From contig CAZLLK010000005.1 in NCBI GenBank assembly GCA_964560435.1, forward strand, positions 5,711 through 69,710: a stretch of 64,000 nt of DNA. Direction: 5' to 3'. The position numbers were made by a program, and so were the translations under genes. Source of the DNA: an uncultured Oscillospiraceae bacterium (GTDB lineage Bacteria; Bacillota; Clostridia; Oscillospirales; Oscillospiraceae). Positions 6,016-62,451 of this stretch are shown piece after piece (position 1 is the first letter of the stretch; every line of letters begins with the position of its first letter). A model generated the notes under the pieces. The model ran no database searches. It was not told the origin of the DNA and saw nothing but the letters and a program-made list of their open reading frames with translations.

Positions 6016-6050
6016 GTGTTTTTAATACAAAAGAATAAAGGGAGATTTTT

Positions 6051-44625: not shown

Positions 44626-46671
44626 TCAGAAAAGTTTGGACAGCTCTTCGTTCAGCTTTTCTAGCTTGTCCACAGGTTTCAGGCAGATACTTCCTTTGCA
44701 AAGATAATACATCGCTCCGCTTTCGGGAATTCGGTACTCTGCGGTAAACGGAGCTATGGTGGAGAGCTTTTCTTCGTTTTTGGGAGTTTTCAGCAAAACC
44801 GAAAAATTATCTGCGGTCTTTTTTGAAATCAGCTCCGTGAGTTCTGCTGGCACTTCGTTTTCCGAAGTTACACAGACGAGTTCCGCAGAGGAGTATTCCG
44901 CCTCCATGAGTGCAAGCAAGGAAAGGCTGTGCGAAGACGGCTGCGCGGCGATCACTTTGGAGACAAAGTCAAGCTGTTTTTCGGCGGCTTCGCCGAACTT
45001 TTCGTCCGCCGTCAATTTCGAAAGCTTATTAAGGAACAGCGCCGCCGCAGAATTTCCTGATGGCATCGCGCCGTCATAAATAGGTTTGGGTCTTGTGATG
45101 AGCTGCTCCGCATCTTTAGAATACATGAAATACCCACCGTTTTTCTCGTCAAAAAACAGTTCGTTCATCACATTGGCGATTCGTGCCGCCATTGAGAGAT
45201 ACGAAACATCAAATGTTGCACCGTAAAGCTCCAGAAGTGCAAGCCCAAAAAACGCATAGTCGTCAAGCTGGCCTTCATTTGCAGCCTCATTATCCTTCCA
45301 ACGTAATTTTAGGTGTCCGTTTTCTCTCATTAGTTTACCGCATATGAATTCACCGGTCTTTATTGCCGCATCAAGATATTTTTCGCACCTAAATATCCTG
45401 CCCGCTCTTGCCAATGCTATTATCATAAGCGAGTTCCACGAGGTCAGAACCTTGTCGTCCTTATTGAGTTTTGTTCTGTGAAAGCGGTGTTCATATAGTT
45501 TTTGAGAAGACTCCGTTATTTTAGGGTCTTCCTCTTCATATGCTTCACATTTTATAAGATTGGGAACACTTTTGCCCTCGAAGTTGCCGCTCTCGGAAAT
45601 ATCAAAACGTCGGCAAAACACTTCCCCGTCCGTTTCACCCAAAACATTCTTAATGTCTGACTGGGTAAAAGCGTAGTATTTTCCCTCCACGCCCTCGCTG
45701 TCAGCATCCTGCCCGCACAAAAAGCCGCCCAGCGTGTCTGTCAACTCCGACAAAACGTAGTTAATCGTTTTTTCGGCAACGCTTTGATAAAAAGCCCGTC
45801 CCGTCAGTTCAAACGCCTTAGAATATGCCCACACGAGCAGCGCATTGTCATATAACATTTTTTCAAAATGCGGTATGAGCCATTTTTCGTCAGTGGAATA
45901 GCGCGAAAAACCGCCGCCGATGTGGTCAAAAATTCCTCCGCGGTACATATGCTCCAGTGTGCACTCCGCAATGTTCAAGGCCGACTCGTCATGTTCAAGT
46001 GCCGAAAAGCGAAGCAGGAAAATAAGATTGTGCGGAATCGGGAACTTCGGCGACGAACCGAAACCTCCCCATTTTTCGTCAAAGCTACGCGCAAAGCTCG
46101 TTTTTGCAGCTAAAACGAGCTCCTTTGCAGGCTTTCTAGAACCATAAGAAGCATTTTCCGCATTCTGCATATAGCTTGTTATTTGTTCGCCGCTGTCAAG
46201 CAGAGCCTTGCGATTTGTTTGCCATCGCTGCGAAATCGCGGATAGCAAATCAAGAAGTCCCGTCATGCCGTATCGCGAGTTTTTCGGCAGATACGTCCCC
46301 GCAAAAAACGGTTTTTTGTCCGGCGTCATAATAATGGTCATCGGCCAGCCGCCCGAGCCCGTCAACGCCTGACATACGTCCATATAAACCGCGTCCACGT
46401 CGGGGCGTTCCTCTCTGTCCACCTTCACTGCGATGAAACTGCCGTTCAGCATTTCGGCAACCTCATCGTCCTCAAACGATTCGTGCGCCATCACATGGCA
46501 CCAATGACAACAGCTGTATCCAATGCTGAGGAAAACGGGCTTGTCCTCCGCTTTGGCCTTGGAAAAGGCCTCTTCTCCCCACGGGAACCAGTCCACGGGG
46601 TTATGAGCGTGAGAAAAAAGATATGGCGATTTCTCGGTTATTAAGTGGTTGGGCGCTTTACTGTTAGTTAT
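44626..46671 (-). CDS. yyaL: Thioredoxin-domain protein of the YyaL/DUF255 type (thioredoxin fold plus six-hairpin glycosidase-like domain)
   Basis: [45 protein letters not shown] followed by about 600 aa. The ORF track starts at GTG 46596. The conserved N-terminus ([19 protein letters not shown]) is in frame upstream, back to an ATA at 46671 that sits 9 nt after AAGGAAG. Confidence 0.85.
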
Positions 46672-46687
46672 TAATCATCGCTTCCTT
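46501..46687 (-). repeat. 5' module copy 0 (part of the intact gene): RBS plus first ~52 codons up to CCHW
   Basis: Reference copy of the reiterated module. The junction codons CAT TGG are the reverse complement of CCAATG at 46501..46506. Confidence 0.95.
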
Positions 46688-46910
46688 TACTATAAACTTT
46701 TACTCTCAATTTAATATACCCCAAATAAAAAAAGATACTAATATCAAATTTGCAATATAGTCTTATTAGCGGAATATAGTTTTGTTTGCACACAAAACTA
46801 TATTTATCGCCTTTAGACTGAATTAATTCACACAATTTGGTATTTATGTTATAATTATGTGATACTTAATATGTTTTGTGTTATATGTCAAATTATTGGG
46901 GGTACTTATT

Positions 46911-47471
46911 ATGAGAAAAATATGGTTTGCTTTGTTTTTTGTAATTATGGTTACTTGTATTGGATTTATTATATACTTAAGCCCATATACCATTAGCAAT
47001 AATGAAACACAATTAGAGGATATTATACTGAGGTTTATTAACAGACCCACTGCAATTGCTTATAATATTGATATTAAACAAGAACTAAACCTTGATAACA
47101 AAAAGCATGTCTTGTATACAATAGATAATGAAATGGGTGAAGCAGAATTAACTAGAGGTATTAACAATAAATACAAAATGGAATTTGTAAGCTATGGAAG
47201 TTCCCTATTTAAATGTGACGTAAGAAAAACAAACAAGGGTAAATATATTTTCCTACAAGGCAAAAACGTTGATAACGAAATTGCGTATGTCAATGTACAA
47301 TCGGGTTCCGATGAATATAGAATCGATATTCCTCAACAGGAGTTCTTTGTGGTTAGTTGCCCAGTTCCAATTGATACTCAACTCGGATTTGTCGCTGCTA
47401 ACACTATAAAATTCTTCAATAATAACGATGCTAATATTACTAATGAGATGCTAGAAATTATACTTAAATAG
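46911..47471 (+). CDS. Hypothetical N-terminally anchored protein (cassette 1 cargo)
   Basis: 186 aa from ATG 46911. It has one N-terminal TM helix (IWFALFFVIMVTCIGFIIYL). AT-rich. I recognise no family. Confidence 0.5.
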   Translation: MRKIWFALFFVIMVTCIGFIIYLSPYTISNNETQLEDIILRFINRPTAIAYNIDIKQELNLDNKKHVLYTIDNEMGEAELTRGINNKYKMEFVSYGSSLFKCDVRKTNKGKYIFLQGKNVDNEIAYVNVQSGSDEYRIDIPQQEFFVVSCPVPIDTQLGFVAANTIKFFNNNDANITNEMLEIILK

Positions 47472-47535: not shown

Positions 47536-47748
47536 CATTGGTTCAAGTAGCGGAATTGACGCCAATGGCAACAGCTGTATCCGATGCTGAGGAATACAGG
47601 CTTGTCCTCCGCTTTCGCTTTCTCAAACGCCTCATCGCCCCATGGATACCAGTTCACGGGGTTATGGGCATGGGAAAGCAGATAGGGGGATTTTTCACAA
47701 ATTAATCTGTTTGGCACATTACTGTTAGTTATAGGGCATCACCTCCTT
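47536..47748 (-). repeat. 5' module copy 1 plus tail motif
   Basis: Encodes [51 protein letters not shown], then diverges into the tail (RQFRYLNQ stop). RBS AAGGAGG is at 47742..47748. Confidence 0.95.
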
Positions 47749-47982
47749 ATTTGTTTCATAATTCGATATTTAATTCCCGAATTAATATTTACAAATTGAG
47801 CGGATAAATACTCAACTGCTAATAACATAAGTCATTCCAATAATGGACTTTTAAATTATTCTTGAAATTGGGTGTTCTAGATAATACTATGAGCACGAAA
47901 TCTATGATAGATTTCAATACTATTAACTAAAGTATTATTCGAACCTGAATCAGCAAGAAAAAATATATATAAAGAGGTTGAA

Positions 47983-48453
47983 ATGAAAAGGAAAATACTA
48001 TGGTCGTTATTTGTGTTATACTGCATTATTGCCGTGTATTTCTTGTTCTTATGGAATCGAGTACCTTATGTAGGCACTCGTACTGATTATATAAAGTCAT
48101 ACATGAACCTTATTCCATTTAAAACAATTTCGAATTCTTTCTTGCTGGCTATACAAGAGTCCAAATTTTTAAAAAATGGTCGCTTCGGCGGATTAATATG
48201 TATTATTAATCTCGTAGGGAATATTATAGTCGCTGTTCCTCTTGGTATCCTCTTGCCAAGTCTTTTCAATAGGTTTAATACTTTCACATCATTCATTCAA
48301 ATTACTTTAGCAATAGTCTTAATTGTTGAATTATTACAATTATTTTTCATGGTTGGAAGCTGCGATATTGATGATTTAATTTTGAATGTAATCGGTGCAT
48401 TGATGGGGTTTGGTATCTTTAAAACAAAATGCTTCCGAGAATTGCGTAATTAA
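47983..48453 (+). CDS. VanZ family protein (cassette 2 cargo)
   Basis: 156 aa with four TM helices and VanZ-like motifs (NLIPF, NLVGNIIVAVPLGILLP, CDIDDLILNVIGALMGF). Confidence 0.75.
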   Translation: MKRKILWSLFVLYCIIAVYFLFLWNRVPYVGTRTDYIKSYMNLIPFKTISNSFLLAIQESKFLKNGRFGGLICIINLVGNIIVAVPLGILLPSLFNRFNTFTSFIQITLAIVLIVELLQLFFMVGSCDIDDLILNVIGALMGFGIFKTKCFRELRN

Positions 48454-48534
48454 AACAGAAATATATTAATATAGTTAGAGGTTATGAATTTCCCAGGAAC
48501 AATCTATCAATTTCAATTGCGCATTGATAAGCAC

Positions 48535-48751
48535 CATTTGAGCAAGTAATCAGAGCGACACCAGTGACAGCAGCTGAAGGCGAAGTTGAGGAATATAGGC
48601 TTGTCCTCCGCTTTAGCCTCAGAAAACGCTTCCTCGTCCCATGGATACCAGTACACGGGGTTATAAGCATGTTGTAATAAATAAGTAGACTTTTCATTTA
48701 TCAAAGCATTGGGTATTTTCTTGATTGATGTCATAGTATAACCCCCTTTCG
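48535..48751 (-). repeat. 5' module copy 2 plus tail motif (most divergent copy)
   Basis: Encodes [58 protein letters not shown], then the tail CRSDYLL. Confidence 0.95.
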
Positions 48752-48899
48752 TTTCTTTGATATTGCACATATTACAGTTGCCCGCTATGTTATAAATTAT
48801 ACCTTGACTTGAAGCCATATAGCATTGACTTTGTCGTGACATTTTCCCCCTTACATGCTATGCTAGTATGAAAAGCTAGAAAGAAGGTTATGTGATTTC

Positions 48900-49763
48900 A
48901 TGAAAGATATTAGAATTGTAATCGTTGATGACTCGGCTTTCTCAATTTCATTTATTAGAAACATTCTCGGTAATAATGGGTTTGATGTTGTTGGTGATGC
49001 CGGCTCACTGGAAGAAGTGAAAGCAGTTGTTAAAGACAAGAAACCTACTTTGGTAACGATGGATATGACCTTGCCCGGGACAGACGGACTTGAGTGTACT
49101 CGTGCTATACATGAAATTGATGAAAATATCAAAGTAATCGTTATCAGCTCTATGATGGATGAAGAAATTGTAAACGAGGCAAAGAAAAACAAAGTATCAG
49201 CCTACATTCAAAAGCCCGTTGACGCTGATGAGCTTCTCACGGCAATTAATAGGGTTATGGCTTCTGATGAACTGTATCAGTTTCTGGAAGATGAATACTT
49301 TGCGGTATTTAAAGAAGCTCTTATGGATGGAATGAATAAAATGACCAAAACCCTCCTAACATACACGGATGAATATTCTTCTGCCGAAAAACATGAATCA
49401 GCAGGTATGACAATTATTATCGGAATTAGCGGCAAGTTTTCAGGCCGGATGCTCATTGATTTATCAAATGAAACCGCTACAAACATAGCAACCGCAATAT
49501 TCAGGAGCGAACCGAAAAACAGCGATGAAATGATGGCTGCACTTGGAGAATTCGCAAATATCATAGCCGGAAATGCATGTTCTATTCTGAATAGAAAGAA
49601 CAAGGCTTTAGGACTTCGTTTAGCTCCGCCTTCTATCCTATCCGGTGATAGTGTTCTCATATCGGCTCCTACGTTCGAAACAACCACCGCAAAAGCCGAA
49701 ACAAATTTTGGTGAACTGTTCCTGAATGTAGGTTTCAAAAAGGGGGCAGAAGAGTGGATTTAA
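48900..49763 (+). CDS. CheY-like receiver fused to CheX/CheC-like phosphatase domain (cassette 3 cargo)
   Basis: REC domain (IVIVDDS, LVTMDMTLPGTDG, YIQKP) plus a C-terminal segment carrying GEFANIIAGNA. Confidence 0.75.
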   Translation: MKDIRIVIVDDSAFSISFIRNILGNNGFDVVGDAGSLEEVKAVVKDKKPTLVTMDMTLPGTDGLECTRAIHEIDENIKVIVISSMMDEEIVNEAKKNKVSAYIQKPVDADELLTAINRVMASDELYQFLEDEYFAVFKEALMDGMNKMTKTLLTYTDEYSSAEKHESAGMTIIIGISGKFSGRMLIDLSNETATNIATAIFRSEPKNSDEMMAALGEFANIIAGNACSILNRKNKALGLRLAPPSILSGDSVLISAPTFETTTAKAETNFGELFLNVGFKKGAEEWI

Positions 49764-50215
49764 AATATATAAACCCCTTTATTCAATCCTTCACCTCAGT
49801 AATGCCCGAGTTGGGATTTGGCGATGTGAAAATGGGCACTCAGAATGGCAAAGGTAAAGAAATAACAGGTTCGGGGGTCTTTGTTATATTGGGCATCGTT
49901 GGAGCTATCAGGGGCAATGTCGTTTACATAATAAATATAGAGTCTGCTAAGCAAATAGCATCGACCATGATGATGGGCGCTCAGGTAGATGAATTTGACG
50001 ATATGGCCAGCAGCGCAATATCGGAATTAACGAATATGCTAACCGCTAATGCAGCAACCGCTTTCTCTAACGGTGGGATTTTAATCGATATTTCAACTCC
50101 GACAATGCTTCAAGGAGAAAATATATCTATTAATATGAGTTCCGATCAGGTTCTTTGCTTCCAACTCTTAGCTGATGACATTCCGATTGAAATCAATATA
50201 TCATTTGAAACCTGA
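49754..50215 (+). CDS. CheX-like chemotaxis phosphatase (cassette 3 cargo)
   Basis: 153 aa with INPFIQSFTSVM and ISELTNMLTANA. The GTG start overlaps the upstream gene. Confidence 0.7.
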   Translation: MDLKYINPFIQSFTSVMPELGFGDVKMGTQNGKGKEITGSGVFVILGIVGAIRGNVVYIINIESAKQIASTMMMGAQVDEFDDMASSAISELTNMLTANAATAFSNGGILIDISTPTMLQGENISINMSSDQVLCFQLLADDIPIEINISFET

Positions 50216-50323
50216 AGTGGTTTTTTAGGTCATTACCTTAGCCTTCCAATAAAATCTCTTGCATATCTCAACTATTGCAAAGGGTGTCCATTTTGACACC
50301 CTTTGCAATTTTATCTAATTTCG

Positions 50324-50536
50324 ATTTGGTTCAAGTAATCAAATTGCCACCAATGACAGCAGCTATATCCGATGCTGAGGAAAACGGGCTTGTCCTCGGC
50401 TTTGGCTTTTTCAAACGCTTCGTCGCCCCACAGGAACCAGTCCACGGGGTTAAACATGTGTTCACAAGATAAGGCGATTTTTCATTAATTAAACTGTTTG
50501 GATCTAATTCACTCATCACTAAATAATCACATCCTA
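50324..50536 (-). repeat. 5' module copy 3 plus tail motif (frameshifted)
   Basis: [17 protein letters not shown], then a 1 nt frame change, after which [37 protein letters not shown] is read in another frame. The tail is WQFDYLNQ. Confidence 0.95.
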
Positions 50537-50642
50537 ACTTGTCATTCTCAAACTATCTATCCAGAATCCCCTATATGTTGACTTTTATAACAACTTATAG
50601 GATAATTTATCCAATAGTAGCTGTTTTATCCCGGAGGTTAAT

Positions 50643-51518
50643 ATGAAAGTATTGGTATTAGGCGGTACCCGTTTTTTTGGAACACATATGGTCCATTCAT
50701 TATTGGATAAAGGGCACAGTGTTACTATTGCCACGAGAGGAAACGCAAAGGATAATTTTGGGCAAAAAGTTGAGAGAATCACCATTGAACGTACCAACGC
50801 TGATAGCTTAACAAAAGTATTATGTAACCAGTATTTTGATGTGGTTTGTGATAACCTTGCGTACTGCTCAAATGATGTAAAAGTTCTATTGGATTGCTTA
50901 AAGTGCGAAAGATATGTGATGACTTCTTCGGCATCTGTCTATATTAGTCAACATCTTCATACGAAAGAAAACGAGTTCAATCCACTATCTCATACTCTAA
51001 AGTGGTGCTCTCGACAGGATTATTCTTATGATGAAATAAAACGTCAGGCAGAATGTGCATTATTTCAGACATATTCTGGCTTGCCAGCAGTTGCTGTTCG
51101 TTTTCCTTACGTTATCGGACAAGATGATTATACCCAGAGATTGTTTTTTTATGTTGAGCAAACTATTAAACGAAATCCTATGTATGTTGATAATCTGAAT
51201 GAACAAATTAGCTTTATTGAATCAACTGAGGTGGGAAATTTTCTTTCATGGGTTGCAGAGCAGAAATTTACTGGAACTATAAACGGAAATAATATTGGTA
51301 CTATTTCCTTGAAAGAAATAATTTACTATGTAGAACAAAAAACTGGAAAAAAAGCAGTATTCTCGGCTGAAGGATTAACCGGGCCATATAACGGGCAAAA
51401 GTCATTTAGCCTTGATACTGAACGCGCTAATAGTTTGGGATATACTTTTTCTGAATTAAACGGGTGGATTTATGAATTGATAGATAGCTATATTAAGAAA
51501 GTGAATTTATATCTTTAA
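50643..51518 (+). CDS. NAD-dependent epimerase/dehydratase family protein (cassette 4 cargo)
   Basis: 291 aa with the Rossmann motif VLVLGGTRFFGTHMV. Confidence 0.75.
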   Translation: MKVLVLGGTRFFGTHMVHSLLDKGHSVTIATRGNAKDNFGQKVERITIERTNADSLTKVLCNQYFDVVCDNLAYCSNDVKVLLDCLKCERYVMTSSASVYISQHLHTKENEFNPLSHTLKWCSRQDYSYDEIKRQAECALFQTYSGLPAVAVRFPYVIGQDDYTQRLFFYVEQTIKRNPMYVDNLNEQISFIESTEVGNFLSWVAEQKFTGTINGNNIGTISLKEIIYYVEQKTGKKAVFSAEGLTGPYNGQKSFSLDTERANSLGYTFSELNGWIYELIDSYIKKVNLYL

Positions 51519-51590
51519 AGAGTAAGACTGACATCAGTTATTTGACATTGCTACAATTTGTAATTACGTAACAAATCTTATTGCTTTAAT

Positions 51591-51803
51591 CAAATGAGCA
51601 AGTAATCAGAACGGCACCAATGGCATCTGCTATATCCGATGCTGAGGAAAACGGGCTTGTCCTCGGCTTTGGCTTTTTCAAACGCTTCGTCGCCCCACAG
51701 GAACCAGTCCGCAGGGTTGTGGGCGTGAGAAAAAAGATATGGCGGTTTTTCGTTTTTTAAGTAGTTGGAGTTCTTTTACTTGTTTACAATGAGCCACCTC
51801 CTC
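51591..51803 (-). repeat. 5' module copy 4 plus tail motif (no start codon, CC changed to RC)
   Basis: No ORF of 60 aa or more exists here. The nucleotide homology is clear (…GATGCTGAGGAAAACGGGCTTGTCCTCGGC…). RBS GAGGAGG is at 51797..51803. Confidence 0.95.
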
Positions 51804-51927
51804 AAAAATCAAATGAATAAAAAAGCAAAAGGATACTTATTATAGTATCCTTTTATTGCTTAATTGACCGTGTCAATTTAAAGTTAGGCTTGACTCTTAC
51901 CTTCCGAGAATTGATTTCAGTTGATTA

Positions 51928-52494
51928 TTATATGTAATTTGCTTTTTTCCAAAATGTTTTTTCGTGTAGTGAATTATTTAATATCGCAAATACTCCATAT
52001 CCAATTAAGCCGCCAATCGTGTTAAAAATTAAATCGTCGACATCTGCACGTCGTCCGATAAAATATTGGAACGTTTCAATGCAGACGATAAATGCTACGA
52101 TGCACAGCACCGTTTTCCACCACTTTCTACAGTTTTTAAACACAACGGGCAATATAAACCCTGCTGGTATTAGCATAATCAAGTTAATCAATACCTGCTT
52201 TGATATTTCTGTTATACCTATTTCGTTTATTTGTTTCATCCAAATAAACGGCACAAGATTCATATAATGATGTTCAGGATTAAGTGTAACATAACCATCA
52301 ATTAATATTGTCCCAAATGTCACATATAGAATACTTAATAAAACTACGATAAAAGTAAAATTAGCAAAATGGCGTTTAAATGGTCTTTTTCCATATTTTT
52401 TTCTTTTCACAAAATGCACAGGCAAGTAAAGTAAAAGTGATACTATTGTCACTCCTGGCAACACCATAATCAAATAGCCTAATAGAATACTCAT
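51928..52494 (-). CDS. VanZ family protein (cassette 5 cargo)
   Basis: 188 aa with VanZ-like motifs (NLVPF, LINLIMLIPAGFILP, ADVDDLIFNTIGGLIGYG). Confidence 0.75.
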   Translation of the reverse strand: MSILLGYLIMVLPGVTIVSLLLYLPVHFVKRKKYGKRPFKRHFANFTFIVVLLSILYVTFGTILIDGYVTLNPEHHYMNLVPFIWMKQINEIGITEISKQVLINLIMLIPAGFILPVVFKNCRKWWKTVLCIVAFIVCIETFQYFIGRRADVDDLIFNTIGGLIGYGVFAILNNSLHEKTFWKKANYI

Positions 52495-52669
52495 TATTCA
52501 TTTCTCCTCAAAATACAAATAATTTGTTATTCCTAAAACGTCTTTGCTTTTTTTCATGCATACCATCATCACTCATTGAAAACCACTTTTTTGTCTACAG
52601 TCTGCAATATATTTGTCTGTATTTAATTATTATGTCGTTTTTTATATATAGTTGCTGTAATAAATATAA

Positions 52670-53245
52670 CTAAAGCAATAAGAAAAATCGATACCGCAAA
52701 AAAATATAATCAGCAGTATAAGATTGCGCTTTATGGTTATCTTCTTTTGATTGTGGATTTTGTACGCTAGCATTGGTCAGAGCAGATGGTTTCTTTGCTT
52801 TCTCATCCAACCTTTTTTGTGCTTCATAGTATTCTCCGTCATTTATATATTCTTCATAACGAATTACCAATTCGTCTTGTTCGCCTACAAGCTTTAAGCT
52901 CTTATAGTCATCGGATGTGCTTTTGAAAACCCAAGTATCATCAATCTTATCGTCATCTAACAAAACTGCTACAATAAAGTCTCCAGTTTGGGGCTTATCA
53001 CTTGTCCCGTGATATTTATCAAACTTCTTTATTTGAACCTCAGATTGTTCGATGCTCCCCATCATTACCGAAGATGGTGTGATAGTTATTGTGTCGGTAT
53101 CAATAGCCGTAATTTTCCCAATGAATAGTGCCTTTTGTTCTCCTGCCATAAACGACTCAGGTATATCTCCCGCGAAAGCATTTAGACTCGTCAATGGCAA
53201 TAACACAAGAAATAAAAGAACAAAATTGCAAACTTTTTTCAACAT
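52670..53245 (-). CDS. Secreted hypothetical protein (cassette 5 cargo), C-terminus possibly altered by a homopolymer frameshift
   Basis: Signal peptide MLKKVCNFVLLFLVLLPLTSLNAFA. An A7 tract lies at 52698..52704 (see finding). Confidence 0.55.
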   Translation of the reverse strand: MLKKVCNFVLLFLVLLPLTSLNAFAGDIPESFMAGEQKALFIGKITAIDTDTITITPSSVMMGSIEQSEVQIKKFDKYHGTSDKPQTGDFIVAVLLDDDKIDDTWVFKSTSDDYKSLKLVGEQDELVIRYEEYINDGEYYEAQKRLDEKAKKPSALTNASVQNPQSKEDNHKAQSYTADYIFLRYRFFLLL

Positions 53246-53552
53246 TTCAAGTTCCTCCTAACAGCTCTTCTCCGACAAGTAATGTATCGAAATTATATTT
53301 TGTACTTTTATCTAAAAGAAATCATACATTATTTAACATTATATATTATAAAATATCCCAATGTCGAATATTGTCGAAATGTAATAGCAGGGTACCGTTG
53401 TGCATCTGATCCAAAGAATCATAACTTAAATAGCAAAATATAAAGGAAATATTTTCATGTATGTGAAATATGTAATAGAAATACACTTCTGAATAAACTG
53501 AGTTACAAATCCAATTTATTTTCAACTTTTTGATACATTCCCTGACAAATGT

Positions 53553-53770
53553 CAGTTGAGCAAGTAAATAAAACGATACCCAATGGCAGCAGCTATTTCC
53601 AATGCTGAGGAAAACGGGCTTGTCCTCGGCTTTGGCCTTGGAAAAAGCCTCTTTTCCCCACGGAAACCAGTCCACGGGGTTGTGAGCGTGAGAAAAAAGA
53701 TATGGCGATTTTTCGTTTTCAAGTGGTTGGGGATTCTGCTATAAGTCATTTTCAACACCGGCAACATTTT
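53553..53770 (-). repeat. 5' module copy 5 plus tail motif (frameshifted; outermost copy)
   Basis: ATG 53749: [10 protein letters not shown], then a 1 nt deletion, then [31 protein letters not shown] in another frame. The tail is VSFYLLAQ. Confidence 0.95.
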
Positions 53771-53875
53771 TTCAAAGAGCTAATCTTCACCTTTTAATGC
53801 TGCATTTGATACTGTATAATACATTAATACAAAACGACAAGTTGTAACTCTATTATTATGGGAGGTGTGAGAAAA

Positions 53876-54304
53876 ATGGATTTTGAATATGAAGTAACAA
53901 TTCCGGAGGAAAATGAAGCCGAGCATATAGGCAATATGTTACTGCAATTTAATATTGAGTCAAAACCGCTCACTCAGGAAAAGCCATTTATTAACATTAA
54001 CAGATGTATCAAAGATGATAACGGTGAGATTATAGGTGGAATTTTGGCTTGTTCGGCATTGTGGAACGTTCTATCTATTGACACGTTATGGGTAAAGAAA
54101 GAATGTCGCAATAATGGGATTGCAAAACAATTATTAAGTGTTGTTGAAAATGAGGCGAGAAATATTGGGTGCCATCTTGCATATCTGAGCACCTATGATT
54201 TTCAAGCTAAAGACTTCTATTTGAAAAATGGATATGAAATTTTTGGTGTTTTAGAGGACTGCCCTAAAGATCATAGGCTATATCATTTATCAAAAAAATT
54301 ATGA
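53876..54304 (+). CDS. GNAT family N-acetyltransferase
   Basis: 142 aa from ATG 53876, after GGGAGGTG. Core sequence WVKKECRNNGIAKQLL. Confidence 0.7.
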   Translation: MDFEYEVTIPEENEAEHIGNMLLQFNIESKPLTQEKPFININRCIKDDNGEIIGGILACSALWNVLSIDTLWVKKECRNNGIAKQLLSVVENEARNIGCHLAYLSTYDFQAKDFYLKNGYEIFGVLEDCPKDHRLYHLSKKL

Positions 54305-54446
54305 GCTTCAGTAAAGCTTTTTTCTTCATTTTTCAACTGTTTTTTAGGTCGCTTTTTCACCTTATATTGTATTGAGCATTGTAAAATGAAGGCAACAGTG
54401 ATATTCTAACATTTAGTAACTTATTGATTTTGGAGGAAAGAACATA

Positions 54447-55124
54447 ATGAAGAAACTGATTGTTTTATGTATGAGCGTTATACTGCTCATGAGCGCTCTG
54501 TCCGGCTGTGGGGATAAAATCGTCAAACCGACGGAGTCGCCAAAAGCATCTGCGGAATCGCCGCAAGCGCCTAACGTAGAAAAAGATAATTATCCTGTTG
54601 AATTGTCCAGCTCGGAGATTGCCGATTTTCAGACCGCCTTTAGCGCTGACGAAAATTACGGTTTCCTGCTCTCTGACTATAGCGATATTCGTGATATCGA
54701 TTTGTACCAGGTGCTTTACACAGGCGCAGGAATGGTTGACCCCGAAAACGCAGAAGAAATAACCACTGCTTATCTGGCTGCAATTGGCGAAACAGAGCTA
54801 TTTACCGATTGCACTATCCTAACCACAAAGCAACTCGATAACTTTTTGCTCTCGAAAACAGGGTATAAGCTTTCAGAAATGAAAAACACCTTAGGATGGG
54901 AATATATCGAAGCATATGACGCCTATGTCAATCAGCACGGTGATACAAACTACTTCGCCGCAACCTGCACTGGCGGCCGCGCTATCAGTCCAGACGTGTA
55001 CGAAATCGAATATGTATTTGAAGGCGGATTATATAGCACCGACGGCGAACTTTTTTCCGGTGGAACTGTGACCGTTAACACTGCGGGCGTTGCCTTGCAG
55101 TTCATTTCCAACATCATACACTGA
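54447..55124 (+). CDS. Lipoprotein, function unknown
   Basis: Lipobox LMSALSGC|GD. 225 aa. Confidence 0.6.
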   Translation: MKKLIVLCMSVILLMSALSGCGDKIVKPTESPKASAESPQAPNVEKDNYPVELSSSEIADFQTAFSADENYGFLLSDYSDIRDIDLYQVLYTGAGMVDPENAEEITTAYLAAIGETELFTDCTILTTKQLDNFLLSKTGYKLSEMKNTLGWEYIEAYDAYVNQHGDTNYFAATCTGGRAISPDVYEIEYVFEGGLYSTDGELFSGGTVTVNTAGVALQFISNIIH

Positions 55125-55181
55125 TACTTCAAATTCCTGAAGGTAGCTTGGCAGAAACGCCAGGAAATTTTCCGTCTCAAC

Positions 55182-55232
55182 AAAATAGATGCAAGTCGTT
55201 GGCAAAACGACTTGCATCTATTTTGTTTTTTT
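55182..55232 (+). terminator. Rho-independent terminator
   Basis: AAAATAGATGCAAGTCGTT / AACGACTTGCATCTATTTT, a 19 bp stem, then GTTTTTTT. Confidence 0.85.
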
Positions 55233-55295
55233 GAGGCTCACTGTCAATAACAGTTCCCCTTAATTAGGCTTAATACAGCAGCTCTTATTAATTAG

Positions 55296-56639
55296 TTAAT
55301 TTGCATCCCTATGGTGTAGGAACCTACGGCCCTTTACGTTTGCGTTTTTAACTTCCTCAACTTCATTCTTTTCACCAGCTTGTTCAAGATCCTTGAGTTC
55401 TTCTAATCTGTTCTCCGCTCGCTTCTTCAAAACTGCCGATATTTGAGTATTCATTTTTGCTTTGTGATAGTAATTTCTTGCTTCTTTGATATTTCCAAGC
55501 TTAGCATTTAATTCGCCAATTGTCATAACAAGCTGTATTTCACCGTCCGCTGACAAATCCAACTCCAGATAAGCCTTCATATATTTATCAAGGGCTTGCT
55601 TTGACAAATTCATTTCCATTTGCTCGTCTTTACAGTCTTGATACAGCCAGCTAAGCTTATGCAAAAGCTTTGCCTGAATTAGTTGGGCTTTTGAAAAGCT
55701 ATTTGGTGCACAAAACAATGCCAAATAGTATCCTGCAAAAATAGATGCAGTATCGGGCTTAGTTCCAAACTGAAAGTTAACAGTTTTTTTAAGCTTTTCT
55801 AGTTCTCCCGCCAAACCTGTTTCTAGGTCTTCAGCTTTTTCGAATATATTCTCCAACGCACTATATAGGCAATGTGGACAGGTTATTACCTCATAATAAA
55901 CCGGCTCAAAATCTTTATAATGCTTGCGCAGGTCATCATCTATGGTTGGGGCTCCAAGTTTGGACGATAGTATCTTTAGTCCTTTGAACTTGTTGCCACA
56001 TACAGGGCACCTGTAATCTGCCTCGCATATGCTTGTGTTGTCATTAGTTAACGTTAATTTATACTCGCCCGTGTGTCCTTCGGGGAACAATTTGAAGTCA
56101 ACCTGTGACGCAACCACCGCTCTTCCATCAATAAGTGGATCAGCAGGCTGAAGCCTATCATCTGCTTGATCGCATTTATTCAGAATGTTTGGCTTCGTTT
56201 CGGTGTCTTTATTAGCTAATATTGGTTTGCGTTCTATCCACATATTGCCTGTAGCAGCTTCATAATCATCTCTTATTTTTTCAACGCGGTCATACATGGC
56301 TTTCATGAGCTCATATGCAAATTTAGGTTCCCCTACGATAAATGAAGCCAAGCTGATCTCGCTAATTGGTAGTGCGATTACATCAGTAATTGCACTCGAT
56401 GTAATATGCAATCTTTTTTTGGAAAACACTAATGGTGTATCAAAGAAGTCACCTGGACCAACAGTTTCAATAACAGTATCATCCAGGCTATTTATTATAG
56501 CAACTTCACCTTGAAAAACCACAAACATTTCAGTGCCTGTTCCGTCTCTGCTAAATATTGTTCCACTTTCATATTTTCTAACTTGTGAAAAATCTTGTAA
56601 CGTTTCTATTTTGATCAACGGTATGCCCCCCACAATCAT
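55296..56639 (-). CDS. cNMP-binding-domain protein fused to a zinc-ribbon/helical (DUF2225-like) module
   Basis: N-terminal cyclic-nucleotide-binding-like barrel (GTIFSRDGTGTEMFVVFQGEVAI). Central CPVCGNKF...CPHCLYSA. Helical TPR-like C-terminus. Confidence 0.55.
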   Translation of the reverse strand: MIVGGIPLIKIETLQDFSQVRKYESGTIFSRDGTGTEMFVVFQGEVAIINSLDDTVIETVGPGDFFDTPLVFSKKRLHITSSAITDVIALPISEISLASFIVGEPKFAYELMKAMYDRVEKIRDDYEAATGNMWIERKPILANKDTETKPNILNKCDQADDRLQPADPLIDGRAVVASQVDFKLFPEGHTGEYKLTLTNDNTSICEADYRCPVCGNKFKGLKILSSKLGAPTIDDDLRKHYKDFEPVYYEVITCPHCLYSALENIFEKAEDLETGLAGELEKLKKTVNFQFGTKPDTASIFAGYYLALFCAPNSFSKAQLIQAKLLHKLSWLYQDCKDEQMEMNLSKQALDKYMKAYLELDLSADGEIQLVMTIGELNAKLGNIKEARNYYHKAKMNTQISAVLKKRAENRLEELKDLEQAGEKNEVEEVKNANVKGRRFLHHRDAN

Positions 56640-57077
56640 CTAATATGCTTTTAAATAATATAACCTCAGCTATTTTGCCCATTATTAATCTTTATTTGAC
56701 AGTTTCTGAAGCGTCAATTCACAAAACGCATTTACATTTGCCCCCTGCTACAGCGCTTTTCCTCCTAATTTTTTAGTAGCCGCAAAAAACATCCTCTCGG
56801 CTCCACAAGGCCAAAAGGATGCTTTTGTAACACATATGATTATATATGCAACTGGCTGACATAGCGATAATCCGCCTTAGTCCCTTTAGCTTTGCGCCAT
56901 CACCTTTCGATGATTTTGCCAATATTAAAAGGTCTTATGACCCAATCGGAATATCCATTATTGGTATTATAACCCAGTGTATATCACTTGTCAATTAAGC
57001 TTCATCTTGTATTGCGACAATTTTCGACATTCGCATCTGTGCATCATGCTCAATTTTCTCGGCAATGGTGGTTGACC

Positions 57078-57722
57078 TTAAAGGAAGGGTCTATCCAATC
57101 TGTTTTCGTAGCCGCCATGCTTCTTTTGCATTTTGTGCCACCCTATCTTTGAGACGCCGATTTTATCCAATGCATCTAGACGCCATACGGCAGATTTTGA
57201 AAGCTCATAGGGTTTTGCAAATTCCTTTATATACTTCTCAGAAAACGACCCAGTCTGCTCATAATCCAGACCAAACGCGGCAAATCTTTTTGCAAGCTTT
57301 TTGAACATCTTTGGCATAATGGCTATCCCTGCACACTCACCTTTGGCAACCGTACCAAGATAATTGTAGTTTAACTGTCTCATTAAATCTGCAAAATATC
57401 GAGATATTATTTCACTTTCTGCCGTTTCGGGGTAACCAGCCTGAATTACAAGTCCAAATGACTGATGAGAGTTGTTTGCAGGATGAAGCTTTTCAAAAAA
57501 CTTAATAACTCCCCCAGGTACCGCGTGTACATAATTCGGAGTAAAAATAATAACATTATCGAAGTCTTCTATGTATTTTATAAGGCTTTCCGTATCCTCT
57601 TTGGAAATCGAACGTATTTCGCAAGGCTGTTCCATTTCGCTAACAAATGCTTTTGCCAGAAAGTAGCTTCCACTTTTTTCGACATTTCCTTTTGGCGAGC
57701 CATTTAAAATAATAGTTTTCAT
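57078..57722 (-). CDS. Flavodoxin-like fold NAD(P)H-dependent oxidoreductase
   Basis: MKTIILNGSPKGNVEKSGSYF N-terminus, typical of the FMN-reductase / flavodoxin-like family. Confidence 0.6.
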   Translation of the reverse strand: MKTIILNGSPKGNVEKSGSYFLAKAFVSEMEQPCEIRSISKEDTESLIKYIEDFDNVIIFTPNYVHAVPGGVIKFFEKLHPANNSHQSFGLVIQAGYPETAESEIISRYFADLMRQLNYNYLGTVAKGECAGIAIMPKMFKKLAKRFAAFGLDYEQTGSFSEKYIKEFAKPYELSKSAVWRLDALDKIGVSKIGWHKMQKKHGGYENRLDRPFL

Positions 57723-58201
57723 CTCTTAACAACCTCACTTGAATAAAAATTAGAAACCGGTTTTATGGATATGTTTTTTGAGTAAAACTGTTTAAAAACT
57801 TTATTTATGTAATCGTAAAAGATTCTGCGGCCTTCTTCACTCTCAAATTCGCCCTCATAGTAAAATTCGATATCCGGATATTTTTCATATCTGGGTGAAT
57901 GCATTGTTCCGCCATCTGCGAAAATGCAGTAAGGAAGATAGTGCGGAATCATTCTGTCAATGAGTGTTTTTAGATTTCCACTGACAAAGCCTCTGTTAAG
58001 CTTTGCGAAAAAAACAGCCTTATCAGCGGTTAGGTAGTCATGGTAAAAACTGTCCAAGTCTTTATGTACACATCTGCCCGGCGTCGTCCACCAACAATTC
58101 CAGCAACCAAGACAATCCTTTACTGTTGTTGTGGATAAGTCTAATACAGGTGCCTCAGGTATACTAAAGTCTCCAAATTCTTTTATTACAACTGTTTTCA
58201 T
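57719..58201 (-). CDS. Flavodoxin-like family protein with Cys cluster
   Basis: 160 aa with CLGCWNCWWTTPGRC, as in iron-sulfur flavoprotein-like members. It overlaps the downstream gene by 4 nt. Confidence 0.45.
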   Translation of the reverse strand: MKTVVIKEFGDFSIPEAPVLDLSTTTVKDCLGCWNCWWTTPGRCVHKDLDSFYHDYLTADKAVFFAKLNRGFVSGNLKTLIDRMIPHYLPYCIFADGGTMHSPRYEKYPDIEFYYEGEFESEEGRRIFYDYINKVFKQFYSKNISIKPVSNFYSSEVVKR

Positions 58202-58269
58202 ATCGTATCTCCTTCTATTTCTATTCTATATTTCGCCATTGTTTTCACCGCAAATCGTTAAGCTTAATA

Positions 58270-58860
58270 TTATAAATTTTTCATCCAAAGAATATCCTCA
58301 ATCTTCGAGTCCCACTCCTTGCTATAATGAACGCCTTTCATATTAGCAATTGTCGATAACCCATGTACCGTCGCCCAACAGGAAATAAGTTTGACCTCCC
58401 ACAGATTCTTTGGAATCCCATTCGCCTTAAATATCGGCAAAACCGTTGTTTTAAAAAGCTCAAAGGGTGGAAAGTTCTCGTTTCCGTCATCTTCTAGTGA
58501 TAAATTTGCACGCGCACATGGTTGAGTAAATAGAAACGAAAAATACTCAGGATTATCAATAAAAAATAATACGTAGCATTTTCCCATATCAATCATCAGC
58601 TGCAAGGAAGTTTTATCGGAACACGAATCAATAATGTCCTGCATTTGACTTACCAGTTGAATTACAACATAGTCCTGCATACACTCAAGCAGATGATCCT
58701 TATTTCTAAAATGGCTGTAGGGTGCCGAATGACTTACGCCGCATAAAACAGCTATTTTTCTCAAGGACAATTGTTTTACACCCTCGTTGTTTATAAGCTG
58801 AATTCCCGCTTCAATCAGATTATTCCTCAAATCACCGTGGTGATAGGGCTTGCTATCCAT
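58270..58860 (-). CDS. TetR/AcrR family transcriptional regulator
   Basis: N-terminal HTH (LSLRKIAVLCGVSHSAPYSHFRNKDHLL). Confidence 0.88.
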   Translation of the reverse strand: MDSKPYHHGDLRNNLIEAGIQLINNEGVKQLSLRKIAVLCGVSHSAPYSHFRNKDHLLECMQDYVVIQLVSQMQDIIDSCSDKTSLQLMIDMGKCYVLFFIDNPEYFSFLFTQPCARANLSLEDDGNENFPPFELFKTTVLPIFKANGIPKNLWEVKLISCWATVHGLSTIANMKGVHYSKEWDSKIEDILWMKNL

Positions 58861-59035
58861 AGTGCAATGACTCCAATCTAAATAAACTTGACACTGTAAA
58901 GATTATGTCACGCAATCTTTACAGTGTCAAGTTGTTGGTCGAATTATTTATGCTTTTGCGAGACTAAAGAGTCTGCTAGTGCGGAGCAACCCCTCAAGGA
59001 GGTTTACCTACTCAAAAACAATTACTCATTAATGC

Positions 59036-59341
59036 TCAAAACATCGATAGCACAGAGTTTTTAGGTTGAACGCCCATCGACTTCTTCACTATTTCGCCAT
59101 TGTCCATAACAACGAGAGTCGGAATGCTCATGACTCCGAATTGGCGTGCTAGCTCCGGCTGCCCGTCGACGTTAACTTTGCAAATTTTCTTGTCTGTTAC
59201 CTCGTTTGCAATTTCTTCAATTACAGGAGAGAGCATTTTGCAGGGGCCACACCAGCTTGCCCAAAAATCGATTAGAACAGGAACGGTGGATTTCATTACT
59301 TCATTTTCAAAATTGTCTTTTGTAATAGTTACTACTGACAT
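59036..59341 (-). CDS. trxA: Thioredoxin
   Basis: WASWCGPCKM active site. About 101 aa from the second ATG, which has correct spacing to AAGGAG. Confidence 0.92.
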   Translation of the reverse strand: MSVVTITKDNFENEVMKSTVPVLIDFWASWCGPCKMLSPVIEEIANEVTDKKICKVNVDGQPELARQFGVMSIPTLVVMDNGEIVKKSMGVQPKNSVLSMF

Positions 59342-59823
59342 ATTAAGCATCTCCTTAAAGATTCGTTGGTATATTTCTTTCTTGATTTGTTTATATTATA
59401 TCCCTAAAACAACCGTTATTCCGTGATTCGGTCACTAAGAAATGCTTTTACAAAATATTTTTAAATCGCCATAAGCAGAACTTTTAGAAAAAGAAGTCAG
59501 AATCACTTACATTTTTGGCAAATACCGGCGTAAAAAAATAGTATTTCGGAACTTGCATAAAAACATACACAATATCGCCAAATGTAAGCCATGGTTGGTA
59601 ACACTCTGCAATACGCTCAACAAAAATCATTGCAAGTGGAACATCGGGTTATATACAGGCGGATTCCGAATTTACAGTATATGAGGTGAGAAAATGATTA
59701 TCGACGTTTTGGTTTGCCGGCCTGACGGCACGCAGGAAATTGAAAAACAAGAGGTTCCGGAGGATTGGTTCACAGTTCCTGAGGCGGTGCCACCAGTGGA
59801 AGAGAAATAAAAGAGTAGATTTA

Positions 59824-59907: not shown

Positions 59908-62451
59908 TTATGCGATCTGATAGATATAGATAGCAGCGGTGGTTGTGTCTGTGGTGGAAGTGGGCAGTACGTATGCTACGTCATTTGCGCCAGCATAGGT
60001 CAGAGCAGCAGCCTGGTCCGCAGTAATCTGAGAAACTGTGGTGGTTGTGCCGTTTACGCTGCAGAGGTAGATTGGGCATGTGCCGCTGAGGACGTAAGCA
60101 CCATTGGGAGTTCCTGTGATTGTCATTGTGCCGTTGAAGTGTGCAACAGCTGTCAGAGCAGTGTGGGTTACACCAGAAAGTCCTGTGGAAGCACCACCGG
60201 AAACGACAGCGCCGTTAGCTGCGTAATCCTTTGTGAAGTACAGAGTGCCCTTGTCGAGTGCGCTATAGCTGGTGACGGTCTTGTTAACTACGCCATTGAC
60301 AATTGCCTCGTAGGAGTAGAGCGATGTTCCATTTGCATCAATTGTTGTGGTAGCAGTGCTGGTTACAAACACCTTGTCATAAGAAGAGGTGGATGCAGTG
60401 GTTGTGCCGCCGGAGCAGATAACTACCTGAGCATAGGTGTTAGTTGCAGAATCTGAAAGGACGTAGATTGTGCCGCCTGCTGCGTAGGAAGCTGCGTTTG
60501 TAATGCCAGTCTTTACAGTGTAGGTCTTTGCGATTGCATCATAATACATGAAGATTGTGCTTGAAGTTGCAATCTTAGAAGTGGTGTATGCTGTGGTAGC
60601 ACCGGTCCAAGTTCCATCACTAACTGCAGTTGCAGCGCCGAGGAACTGAGCGCGGTTGCCGGTTACTACGAAGGATGTGTCGGCAATGTCAAGAAGAGTA
60701 TTGCTTACACCCTTTGTAAGGTCGGTAAGATTTGCGGTCTGGTTTGTTGCAGCGGTCAGGTTGTAGGAACCGTCAGCGTTTACAGCGTAGGTATAGAAGA
60801 TGCCTGCGCCGAGGTTGCCGTTAGCGGATGAACCTGCGGTTGTGCTTGCTACTGCGGTCATAGCGCCACCGAAAGCAGAGGTCTTAGCAACTGTGATAAC
60901 TGCCTGAGTGCCGTCCATCTTAACAACGTTTGCCTTATAGGTCGTTGTGCCGAAGGAGGAGGAGGTATCGGTTGCAGCAACAAAGAATGTGTTGCTTACG
61001 GTTGCAACGTTGGTGGAAGCTACGGTGTAGCAGATGTTCTTGCCGTTGTCAAGATAGAAGGAGAAGCCTGCTTTGCCGATGAGAGCCTGCTGTTCTGCAA
61101 GTGTGTCATAAGCAGCGGGTGCGCCTGCAAGTCCGGAAACGGAATACTTAACTCCGCCAATGGTTACATAAGTTGCAGTGTAAGAAGCGATAGCGCCGGT
61201 AACTACAGCTGCCTTCTCGACATAGGTCATGCCGGTTGCAGATACGTAGTAGAGGATAACGTCGCCCTTTGCAAGGCCAGCGGGGAAAGATACGTTGGTG
61301 GTGTTGAGATTAGCAAGGGGAGCAGCGCCAAAGGTGATAGTTGTGACTGAGCCGGAAGTTGTTGTAACAGGAGCTGCAGCAAGCTGGAGAACAGTCTTAA
61401 CTGTTACAGAAACCTTGTCATACTTGCTGTTGTTATCTGTATCGATGAACTGAACTACAGCGCCGGGGGTTGCAGCATAGCCCTTGATGGTGGCTTCGTT
61501 GTTAGCAACTGTATCAGTTGCGGGATAAGAGAGTGAAGCTACGCCGTCATTGTAATAATAGGTAACTGCTGCATCTGCCTGATACTTGATGTAGGAGGAG
61601 TTGGTAGCTGTTACAAGGTCTGCATAAGGTGTGCCGTCTGTGCTGGAAGCGAGAACTACGTCACTGGAAACGAAAGAGGTAAGTTCTGTTGAACCTAATT
61701 TCCAGAAGTATCCAACTCTGCCGCCTGCGATTGTAGCAGTCTTCGAAAGAGTTGAGTAGACATCTTCAGCGATCTGGAGGTAGTTGTCGCTATTGATATC
61801 GTTTGTGTTCTTTGCTGCGTTTGTGTAAGTAGCAAAGAGCTTGTTGTAGGAAACTTCGGGAACCTTTGTCAAAGCATTGAACACATAGAGGGCTGCTTCT
61901 TCACGAGTAGCTGCTTTTGTGTAATCGCTTGACTTGGTGCCAGTGAATACGCCGAGCTTGTTTGCGGATACTGCAACATTGAGTTCCCAGCTGGGGCCGA
62001 TGAATTCATTTGCTGCGCCGTGGCCTGCTGCGCAGAGCATCATCTTTGCGAGCTGATAGGCGGTGACATTAGCTGTGGGAGCAAATGTGCCGTCGCCCAT
62101 GCCGTTGATAATTCCCTTGCTTACGCAGTAAGCGATGAAGGGGGCAGACCAACGGGAGTTAGCAACATCCGAGAATCCGGTAGCGGTTACGGAAAGTCTA
62201 GATGCTACTGTGGGGCCGAGGACAGCATAGGTAATCATTTTTGCTGCCTCTTCGCGGGAGATTGTGCCTGTGGGTTTGAAGGAACCGTCGGTATAACCGT
62301 TGATTGCGCCGATGCCTGTCATAACACCGACTGCCTCTGTGTACTGAACGGAAGCGGCATCGGAGTATGTTGCTGCAGAAGCAATGCCGAACATTCCGAA
62401 TACCATAACCAGTACGAGTACGAGGCTAAGAGTTCTGTTCAGAGATTTCAT
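59908..62451 (-). CDS. S-layer / cell-surface protein with N-terminal SLH domains
   Basis: 847 aa. Signal peptide ...FGIASA|AT. Three SLH repeats (YSDAASVQYTEAVGVM, FSDVANSRWSAPFIAY, ...). The body is long and rich in Thr, Ala and Gly. Strong RBS GGAGGAG. Confidence 0.85.
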   Translation of the reverse strand: MKSLNRTLSLVLVLVMVFGMFGIASAATYSDAASVQYTEAVGVMTGIGAINGYTDGSFKPTGTISREEAAKMITYAVLGPTVASRLSVTATGFSDVANSRWSAPFIAYCVSKGIINGMGDGTFAPTANVTAYQLAKMMLCAAGHGAANEFIGPSWELNVAVSANKLGVFTGTKSSDYTKAATREEAALYVFNALTKVPEVSYNKLFATYTNAAKNTNDINSDNYLQIAEDVYSTLSKTATIAGGRVGYFWKLGSTELTSFVSSDVVLASSTDGTPYADLVTATNSSYIKYQADAAVTYYYNDGVASLSYPATDTVANNEATIKGYAATPGAVVQFIDTDNNSKYDKVSVTVKTVLQLAAAPVTTTSGSVTTITFGAAPLANLNTTNVSFPAGLAKGDVILYYVSATGMTYVEKAAVVTGAIASYTATYVTIGGVKYSVSGLAGAPAAYDTLAEQQALIGKAGFSFYLDNGKNICYTVASTNVATVSNTFFVAATDTSSSFGTTTYKANVVKMDGTQAVITVAKTSAFGGAMTAVASTTAGSSANGNLGAGIFYTYAVNADGSYNLTAATNQTANLTDLTKGVSNTLLDIADTSFVVTGNRAQFLGAATAVSDGTWTGATTAYTTSKIATSSTIFMYYDAIAKTYTVKTGITNAASYAAGGTIYVLSDSATNTYAQVVICSGGTTTASTSSYDKVFVTSTATTTIDANGTSLYSYEAIVNGVVNKTVTSYSALDKGTLYFTKDYAANGAVVSGGASTGLSGVTHTALTAVAHFNGTMTITGTPNGAYVLSGTCPIYLCSVNGTTTTVSQITADQAAALTYAGANDVAYVLPTSTTDTTTAAIYIYQIA

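Follow-up and report, generated by a model that had tools for sequence, protein, structure and literature searches.

Truncated copies of the 5' end of a DUF255 gene, each followed by a conserved tail, delimit a putative tandem array of small cassettes in an uncultured Oscillospiraceae bacterium

We analyzed a stretch of 64,000 nt (the window) from an uncultured Oscillospiraceae bacterium (GCA_964560435.1, contig CAZLLK010000005.1, positions 5,711-69,710 of the forward strand), in which a DUF255 gene is accompanied by five truncated copies of its own 5' end. The intact gene (44626-46665, minus strand) encodes a 678-aa protein of the DUF255/Thioredox_DsbH (YyaL-like) family (Pfam PF03190, E = 8e-77). 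The leader and first ~60 codons recur as five direct repeats upstream of the gene, where coordinates are higher (47557-47748, 48556-48747, 50345-50536, 51612-51803 and 53575-53766); together with the 5' end of the gene itself they make up a repeat family of six ~190-nt units (D1). Read in the sense of the gene, all of the copies match it as far as CATTGG(TG), i.e., the His and Trp codons of the CHWC redox motif, and then differ. In the gene itself this native or attR-type site lies at 46493-46508 on the minus strand (TGT CAT TGG TGC CAT G, codons C-H-W-C-H), and in a six-way alignment the homology of the fragments with it stops at CATTGGTG.

Each truncated copy is followed by a tail of 26-27 nt, and each tail, read on the plus strand, runs into CCARTG. 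Both the repeat search, where the tails form a family of their own (D4), and the six-way alignment place a tail beside all five copies and none in the intact gene, whose CCAATG (46501-46506, plus-strand coordinates) is preceded by unrelated sequence. Like the fragments, the tails lie on the minus strand and are given here in gene sense. Tail 1 (47536-47561; CGTCAATTCCGCTACTTGAACCAATG) and tail 3 (50324-50349; TGGCAATTTGATTACTTGAACCAAAT) are of subtype 1, tail 3 being the nearest to the general consensus TGGCAATCnnGTTACTryAACCA. Tail 2 (48535-48560; TGTCGCTCTGATTACTTGCTCAAATG), tail 4 (51591-51616; TGCCGTTCTGATTACTTGCTCATTTG) and tail 5 (53553-53579; GTATCGTTTTATTTACTTGCTCAACTG, decayed and with one extra base) are of subtype 2, with the consensus TGYCGYTCTGATTACTTGCTCA. 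The adjoining fragments are pseudogenes, except for c2 (48561-48747), which is an intact open reading frame (ORF) of 73 aa (P0001). Fragment c1 (47562-47748) comprises the DUF255 5' end through CATTGG, with ATA at the start position; c3 (50350-50536) is frameshifted, c4 (51617-51803) lacks a start codon, and c5 (53580-53766), the outermost copy, is frameshifted by a 1-nt deletion. Over 153 nt c5 is 91.5% identical to the 5' part of the intact gene, and it is probably the original chromosomal 5' end.

Much of this anatomy had been noted in an initial annotation made from the letters alone. The six strings that it quoted are present where it placed them, its division of the tails into two subtypes (c1/c3 versus c2/c4/c5) is real, and the alignment bore out its remark that the copies lack mutual similarity past the tail. 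It had also drawn attention to an inverted pair, CATTGG/CCAATG, in c1; the pair exists and is exact, but it does not generalize to the other copies or to other arrays.

The five units so delimited, which we refer to as candidate cassettes, are 1061, 999, 1789, 1267 and 1963 bp long, and the genes between the fragments are intact. Cassette 1 carries a hypothetical protein with no Pfam match (46878-47471, plus strand), cassette 2 a VanZ-like protein (47983-48453, plus), cassette 3 a CheY-CheX fusion together with a CheX/CheC-like protein (48900-50215, plus), and cassette 4 an NAD-dependent epimerase/dehydratase family protein (50643-51518, plus). In cassette 5 (cargo at 51928-53245) both genes are on the minus strand, encoding a second VanZ-like protein (51928-52494) and a hypothetical protein (52670-53245). 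On look-up, the CheY-CheX protein had no exact-protein record. The initial ~165 nt of the intact gene (46501-46665), with its upstream leader, would be part of the cassette nearest to the gene. The GC content is 45-51% in the intact gene versus 32-39% in the array, and the remaining genes of the window are housekeeping genes (UvrB, PolA, MetK, TsaD and others).

The same tail occurs, at the same nucleotide after DUF255 5' fragments, in ~22 independent metagenome contigs, several Logan contigs and one genome contig of 2.9 Mb. Scanning metagenomes with the pattern CAYTGGTGGCA-N6-TTACT-N2-ANCCA yielded 31 loci, ~22 of which had a DUF255 5' fragment immediately upstream, ending exactly at CAYTGG; in several of these the intact gene followed 1-5 kb downstream or additional fragments were present, and the rest of the 31 were chance or decayed matches. 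Protein searches gave a similar picture. All 42 matches to the c2 ORF were N-terminal DUF255 fragments of 53-116 aa, several of them ending in CHW+CRSDYLLK (c2/c4 type) or CHW+WQxxYYN(H/Q) (c1/c3 type). A search with a 65-aa fragment-plus-tail ORF (P0004) returned 401 matches with E-values up to 1e-5; the best 120 were all of 53-113 aa, and the tail-type endings recurred among those read.

Loci retrieved through their proteins (L091, L092, L094, L126 and L129-L132) had the same junction and tail. In L091 a MerR cassette lies between two fragments, and the cassettes of L092, which has three fragments, measure about 1 kb and 8.9 kb. One fragment each is present in L094 and L126, the tail of L126 (TGTCGTTCTGATTACTTGCTCA) being an independent copy of subtype 2, in agreement with the earlier suggestion that at least two element lineages contributed. 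In L129, the 2.9 Mb contig, a single 7.3-kb cassette of metabolic genes separates a fragment and its tail from the intact gene. Over 272 nt this fragment has 91% identity with the 5' part of that gene, and the homology ends at the junction. Tails resembling that of c1 were found in L130-L132 and in peptides P0099 and P0101. Long contigs with arrays include CANOOQ010000001.1 (GCA_947568225.1, 2.9 Mb), Ga0498941_000707, FWWL01000073.1, ERZ773359 NODE-51 and LSQX01161056.1, and SRR13723396 is among the samples in which arrays occur. The initial annotation had made its proposal of a recombination site depend on conservation of the tail in other genomes and on a constant junction. Both comparisons support the proposal: the tail recurs in ~22 of the 31 metagenome loci, in the protein-retrieved loci and in many truncated ORFs, and in every member of this tail family the junction falls at the same nucleotide.

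The cargo of the complete cassettes includes MerR regulators, methyltransferases, FMN reductase, an old-yellow-enzyme-type oxidoreductase, a TIR-domain protein, M6 peptidase, a UbiD/UbiX operon and VanZ. VanZ-like genes, of which the window array has two, appear again in an unrelated array (L119, 1104-1844), and four other arrays have MerR-family regulators among their cargo. Proteins related to chemotaxis adjoin tails both in the window (CheY-CheX) and in L111 (a CheB/CheR fusion). Insertion sequences also lie in or beside arrays, i.e., an IS630-like ORF by our own reading (L098, 407-1452) and an IS66 identified by Pfam (L117, 3132-4661), and one array-associated insertion sequence truncates a DUF255 fragment.

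Conservation was measured on 14 sites that had not been retrieved by the tail pattern (the five window copies and nine from protein-retrieved loci). The mean major-allele frequency was 0.68 over tail nucleotides 1-25, 0.47 over the following 25 nt and 0.71 over the final 30 coding nucleotides. Variable tail positions are out of codon phase: the fourth codon of TGG CAA TCn nGT TAC varies at its first two bases, and its third is fixed. The constraint therefore acts on DNA rather than on a peptide. No motif common to all lineages was found beyond ~25 nt; TTCAATAC, considered as a conserved motif in that region, proved to be confined to one lineage.

The position of the exchange was narrowed by comparing related cassettes in different settings (numbering from the C of CAYTGG as position 1). 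The tails have element-type bases (TGG) from position 9, where the intact gene in the same locus has TGY, and subtype 2 differs from position 11. Tails and fragments have reassorted, i.e., cassettes with near-identical tail and cargo adjoin clearly different 5' fragments. In one such group (B; L115 versus L119) identity was 71% over the left 45 nt and 98% over the 60 nt rightward from position 9; in the other (A; L094, L098, L103 and L096) it was 69-87% on the left and 80-100% on the right, with differences reaching position -1 and, in L103, position 3. Since near-identical tails and cargo stand next to different fragments, the break in relatedness, and with it strand exchange, probably lies within CAYTGGTG, where the initial annotation had proposed a crossover. 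This comparative anatomy supports its further proposal that the tail and the junction form the element-side half of an att-like site.

An inner, near-perfect palindrome, TGYCAY-TG-GTGGCA, made up of TGYCAY from the gene and GTGGCA from the tail around a central TG, has its center inside the likely exchange stretch. Large serine recombinases use att sites of 40-50 bp, with imperfect dyad symmetry about a central dinucleotide that is not palindromic; here two alternative dyads score equally well, pairing ATTGGNTAYAGY with ACTATAACCAAT (the outer one) and CAYTGGTGGCAAT with the end of the tail. The outer-arm dyad between gene ATTGGNTAYAGY and tail ACTATAACCAAT was set aside, since it needs Ser to be encoded by AGY and has two rival axes; it was not used to derive an enzyme class. 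Xer sites are 28 bp long, with XerC and XerD arms in an 11-6-11 arrangement. The layout CAYTGGTGGCA-N6-TTACTnnAACC would fit 11-6-11, and the tail shows a weak likeness to a XerD arm (11 of 22 positions against the dif sequence of Bacillus subtilis). An attC site is an imperfect palindrome that forms a single-stranded hairpin with R''/L''-L'/R' boxes, the crossover being at G|TT. A hairpin of this kind was not supported: junction plus tail folds at 0 kcal/mol in subtype 2, and the best z score was -2.3 (c1).

The closest relatives of the intact gene, in L009 and L010 (84-85% amino acid identity), share its downstream neighborhood (36-44 kb of the window) in matching synteny and have no fragments upstream of the gene, i.e., they are empty sites. 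At the position where L009 and L010 have an ATG start codon, the intact gene (46650-46690, minus strand) and c1 (47715-47745) have ATA, overlapped by an out-of-frame ATG ORF of four codons with a good ribosome-binding site (RBS); the intact gene may use a non-canonical start codon or be poorly translated.

When we surveyed up to 10 kb upstream of each of the 80 best-matching DUF255 loci, from many phyla, one (L071) had a second fragment. An attribution of this fragment to an IS256 remnant was rejected; it belongs to a second tail family, TGYCRYGTCYAYAAAA, whose junction lies 7 nt further into the gene, after CAYTGGTGYCRYGTC. Sites of this second family are at 104 and 8235 in L071, 10184 in L090 (C. 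estertheticum) and 10166 in L093, and the family matches many truncated ORFs of the form ...CHWCHVHKRY..., e.g., in Clostridium estertheticum. It, too, builds arrays without recombinases. Judged from these sequences, the CHWCH-coding stretch is a hotspot for at least two site families. Such use is plausible, because Trp has one codon and Cys and His two each, which would keep the DNA encoding CHWCH near-invariant across taxa.

No recombinase or transposase was recognizable in the five window cassettes or in at least 11 further complete cassettes (1-9 kb). Searches of the window ORFs against Pfam and NCBIfam, in which part of 1-40 kb was covered for top families only, gave no recombinase, and when ~105 ORFs of related loci were added the yield was one small resolvase (in L091), one IS66 and one IS630-like ORF. 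When the L091 resolvase served as a phmmer query against all six-frame ORFs of every locus and of the window, it matched only itself. This 202-aa serine recombinase of the resolvase/invertase type (L091, 4823-5428, minus strand) is the sole site-specific recombinase seen in any array; it has a divergent neighbor, an HTH_17 protein (5822-6286), in an element of >8 kb that also encodes an AAA ATPase and an S8 peptidase. In L130-L132 (10175-20225) the c1-like tail is followed by an element of >10 kb encoding ParA, ParB, RcpC/CpaB, a TadA-like ATPase, TadB/C-like proteins and a large adhesin, i.e., a Tad-type secretion cluster, with older, decayed DUF255 fragments ~3 and 4 kb upstream; this element is a candidate autonomous or helper element. 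The sizes of both larger elements are lower bounds, their far ends lying beyond the DNA covered. Four tail patterns gave chance matches or none in 2.9 million viral contigs, and a BLAST search of plasmids and phages with the c3 unit returned one plasmid-borne, full-length gene and nothing that carries the site.

We consider it likely that the region from 46.5 to 53.8 kb is a tandem array of five small cassettes, inserted site-specifically in the C-H-W codons of the CHWC motif and moved in trans; most likely the tail represents one of the two halves of a compact recombination site. Read in gene sense, a cassette would consist of the tail, the cargo, and a replacement leader with the first ~60 codons ending in CAYTGG. 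As a circle (fragment-core-tail), it would recombine with a resident fragment-core-(rest of gene). Integration would link the resident 5' end to the incoming tail, giving a dead fragment plus tail (an attL-type site), and the remainder of the gene would acquire the incoming 5' end (attR-type), so that the gene stays whole. The ladder seen here would result from repeated integration, the original 5' end probably being c5. As the cassette-side half-site, with strand exchange probably within CAYTGG-TG, the ~25-nt tail would be kept because only tail-retaining cassettes move. Since the cassettes have no recombinase gene, the enzyme would have to act in trans, supplied either by the host or by a larger element sharing the site. 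In this scheme we infer the site-specificity of the recombination, the direction of array growth and the action in trans.

A broader reading, which we offer tentatively, is that Firmicutes possess an integron-like gene-capture platform independent of IntI. Through a ~25-nt site borne by the cassette, a recombinase acting in trans (possibly from the host or a helper element) would bring single-gene cassettes into the CxxC codons of DUF255 genes, remove them and reorder them, with at least two site families, whose junctions are 7 nt apart, using the same ultra-conserved target across genera.

Several observations weigh against site-specific insertion in trans. Neither a recombinase, an excised circle nor a pair of occupied and empty sites from the same strain was seen; c1 and c5 depart right at the junction (CG.. 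and GTATCG.., respectively); the search pattern itself in part dictates which blocks are conserved among the metagenome loci, an ascertainment bias; and the comparison of the same cassette in different contexts comprises two groups on short contigs. Three dyad axes (at positions 4.5, 7.0 and 16.5), each ~3-4 sd above background, compete, and because of this no recombinase class was assigned. Moreover, the 190-nt repeats could let cassettes be excised through RecA and reinserted in the Campbell manner, no dedicated enzyme being needed. An array could even have arisen by homologous recombination throughout, i.e., from one ancient illegitimate junction, with RecA exchange between the ~190-nt repeats, or transformation, spreading it and the tail kept by descent. 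The direct repeats do hold identical runs such as GAGGACAAGCC, no recombinase was found near about 30 arrays, and a universal motif beyond the tail was not found. However, repeats within an array are only 66-91% identical and would be poor substrates for RecA, and in hosts with fragments that differ by 20-30% the tail is as conserved as the coding sequence, whereas the adjoining 25 nt are not. Conservation ends sharply on the right in many lineages whose cargo is unrelated, relatedness breaks at the junction rather than within the repeats, and the second tail family, with its own fixed junction 7 nt away, argues for enzymes that recognize this sequence. We therefore regard an origin by homologous recombination as unlikely.

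We give a little less weight still to the idea that the units are a graveyard, i.e., remnants of integrase-bearing integrative and conjugative elements (ICEs), integrative and mobilizable elements (IMEs) or prophages, and hence cis-mobilizable elements (CIMEs) in the strict sense, the small units never having been mobile themselves. The definition of CIMEs and the accretion model, which is established for other targets, have been described (PMC5704250), and larger elements do occupy the same site, namely the ParA-ParB-Tad element of L130-L132 and the L091 element with its small resolvase and HTH_17 protein. Yet at least 16 complete units (1-9 kb) have both ends and intact cargo ORFs with no recombinase pseudogene detectable by Pfam or phmmer, units with related tail and cargo recur beside different fragments, and the viral contigs contained no carrier of the site. 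We hold it to be practically excluded that the tails are coding sequence running on in decayed form, or are alike by chance, and on sequence grounds this explanation can be taken as already refuted. The next Cys codon of the gene (TGY) is kept in subtype 2, as decay would predict, but the tails cannot be aligned with the gene past CAYTGGTG(YC), and the same tail occurs in dozens of independent loci. In the 64-kb window, the pattern CAAGTA-N11-13-CCARTG has five matches, all at the tails, against 0.04 expected from shuffled sequences.

Site-specific insertion of cassettes moved in trans has partial counterparts among known systems. Like CIMEs, the cassettes have no integration or transfer genes and are stacked head-to-tail at one chromosomal site with the target gene left intact: six repeat units end at CAYTGG, five with tails, and no recombinase is present. 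Tandem accretion with CIMEs reportedly has an example in the islands related to ICESt1 and ICESt3 at fda in Streptococcus thermophilus, the subject of work by Pavlovic et al. in 2004. Unlike CIMEs, the array has as its target the 5' part of a DUF255 gene at active-site codons; the repeat consists of ~190 nt of diverged coding sequence plus a conserved 25-nt tail, the units are mostly of single-gene size, and a parental ICE or IME with an integrase was not seen. SXT/R391 elements in prfC and islands with dusA-specific integrases enter a gene at its 5' end, for which they provide a replacement. As with these, the element-borne leader and N-terminal codons would restore the gene and the displaced 5' end would become a dead fragment; the fragments in the window do hold the RBS, the start region and the first ~60 codons. 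Those elements, however, carry their own tyrosine integrase next to att, and none was found in the at least 16 complete cassettes.

Integron cassettes are likewise small, without a recombinase, diverse in their genes and stacked at one site, each with one short conserved recombination element (attC) on which a tyrosine recombinase (IntI) acts in trans. In contrast to integrons, intI, attI and Pc were not found near the array, the tail has neither an attC-like hairpin nor GTTRRRY/RYYYAAC boxes, there is no GTTRRRY at the junction, cargo orientation is mixed, and every cassette includes ~190 nt of the target gene. Composite islands of staphylococcal cassette chromosome (SCC) elements at rlmH, moved by the large serine recombinases CcrAB, and integrative mobile elements exploiting Xer (IMEX) at dif also include units without a recombinase (pseudo-SCC, TLC/RS1-type) that stand in tandem, have compact sites and are moved by an enzyme encoded elsewhere. 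Their targets, site sequences and host ranges are different; no gene resembling ccr was found here, and at every locus the target is inside DUF255 coding sequence rather than at dif. Literature searches turned up no paper that names DUF255/yyaL as a target of integration or quotes the motif. Site-specific tandem accretion is a known principle; what appears to be new is the target, the site and how prevalent recombinase-less single-gene units are.

If this reading holds, a highly conserved active-site coding stretch, TGY CAY TGG TGY CAY, serves as a broad-host landing pad at which varied cassettes stack without inactivating the gene. The cargo across arrays ranges over regulators, VanZ, chemotaxis-related and TIR-domain proteins, redox enzymes and whole operons. 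The ~50-bp candidate site, with its many natural substrates, offers a concrete starting point for recombinase discovery, and the signature of a DUF255 5' fragment followed by TGGCAATCnnGTTACT locates accessory-gene arrays in genomes and metagenomes of Clostridia and Negativicutes. It would also explain a recurrent annotation artefact, i.e., hundreds of 'DUF255/YyaL' proteins of 55-110 aa in public databases.

Beyond c5, low GC (32-41%) extends over 53800-59500 of the window, with GNAT, lipoprotein, DUF2225, flavodoxin-like and TetR genes, and synteny with L009 returns only at a gene encoding an SLH-domain protein (59908-62451). This may be an additional accessory region without bounding DUF255 fragments. 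Within it, after an ORF at 54447-55124, there is a perfect 22-nt inverted repeat with a 5-nt loop (55179-55227) that resembles a terminator.

A variant with an apparent 20-nt insertion was considered as a second site or an inverted tail and discarded, the same in-frame TGA plus 18 nt being present in the intact gene of L107. It belongs to a DUF255 subfamily that has an in-frame TGA and six extra codons, S-[TGA]-RGCSMT-TCHWC, directly ahead of the CxxC motif (L107, 1810-1850). The subfamily is represented also by L113 and by fragments in L091, L092, L112, L117, L118 and L122. The TGA probably encodes selenocysteine in a UxxC motif. Many public proteins of 53-60 aa ending in '...FLSIGYS' are gene calls that stop at the TGA of this subfamily.

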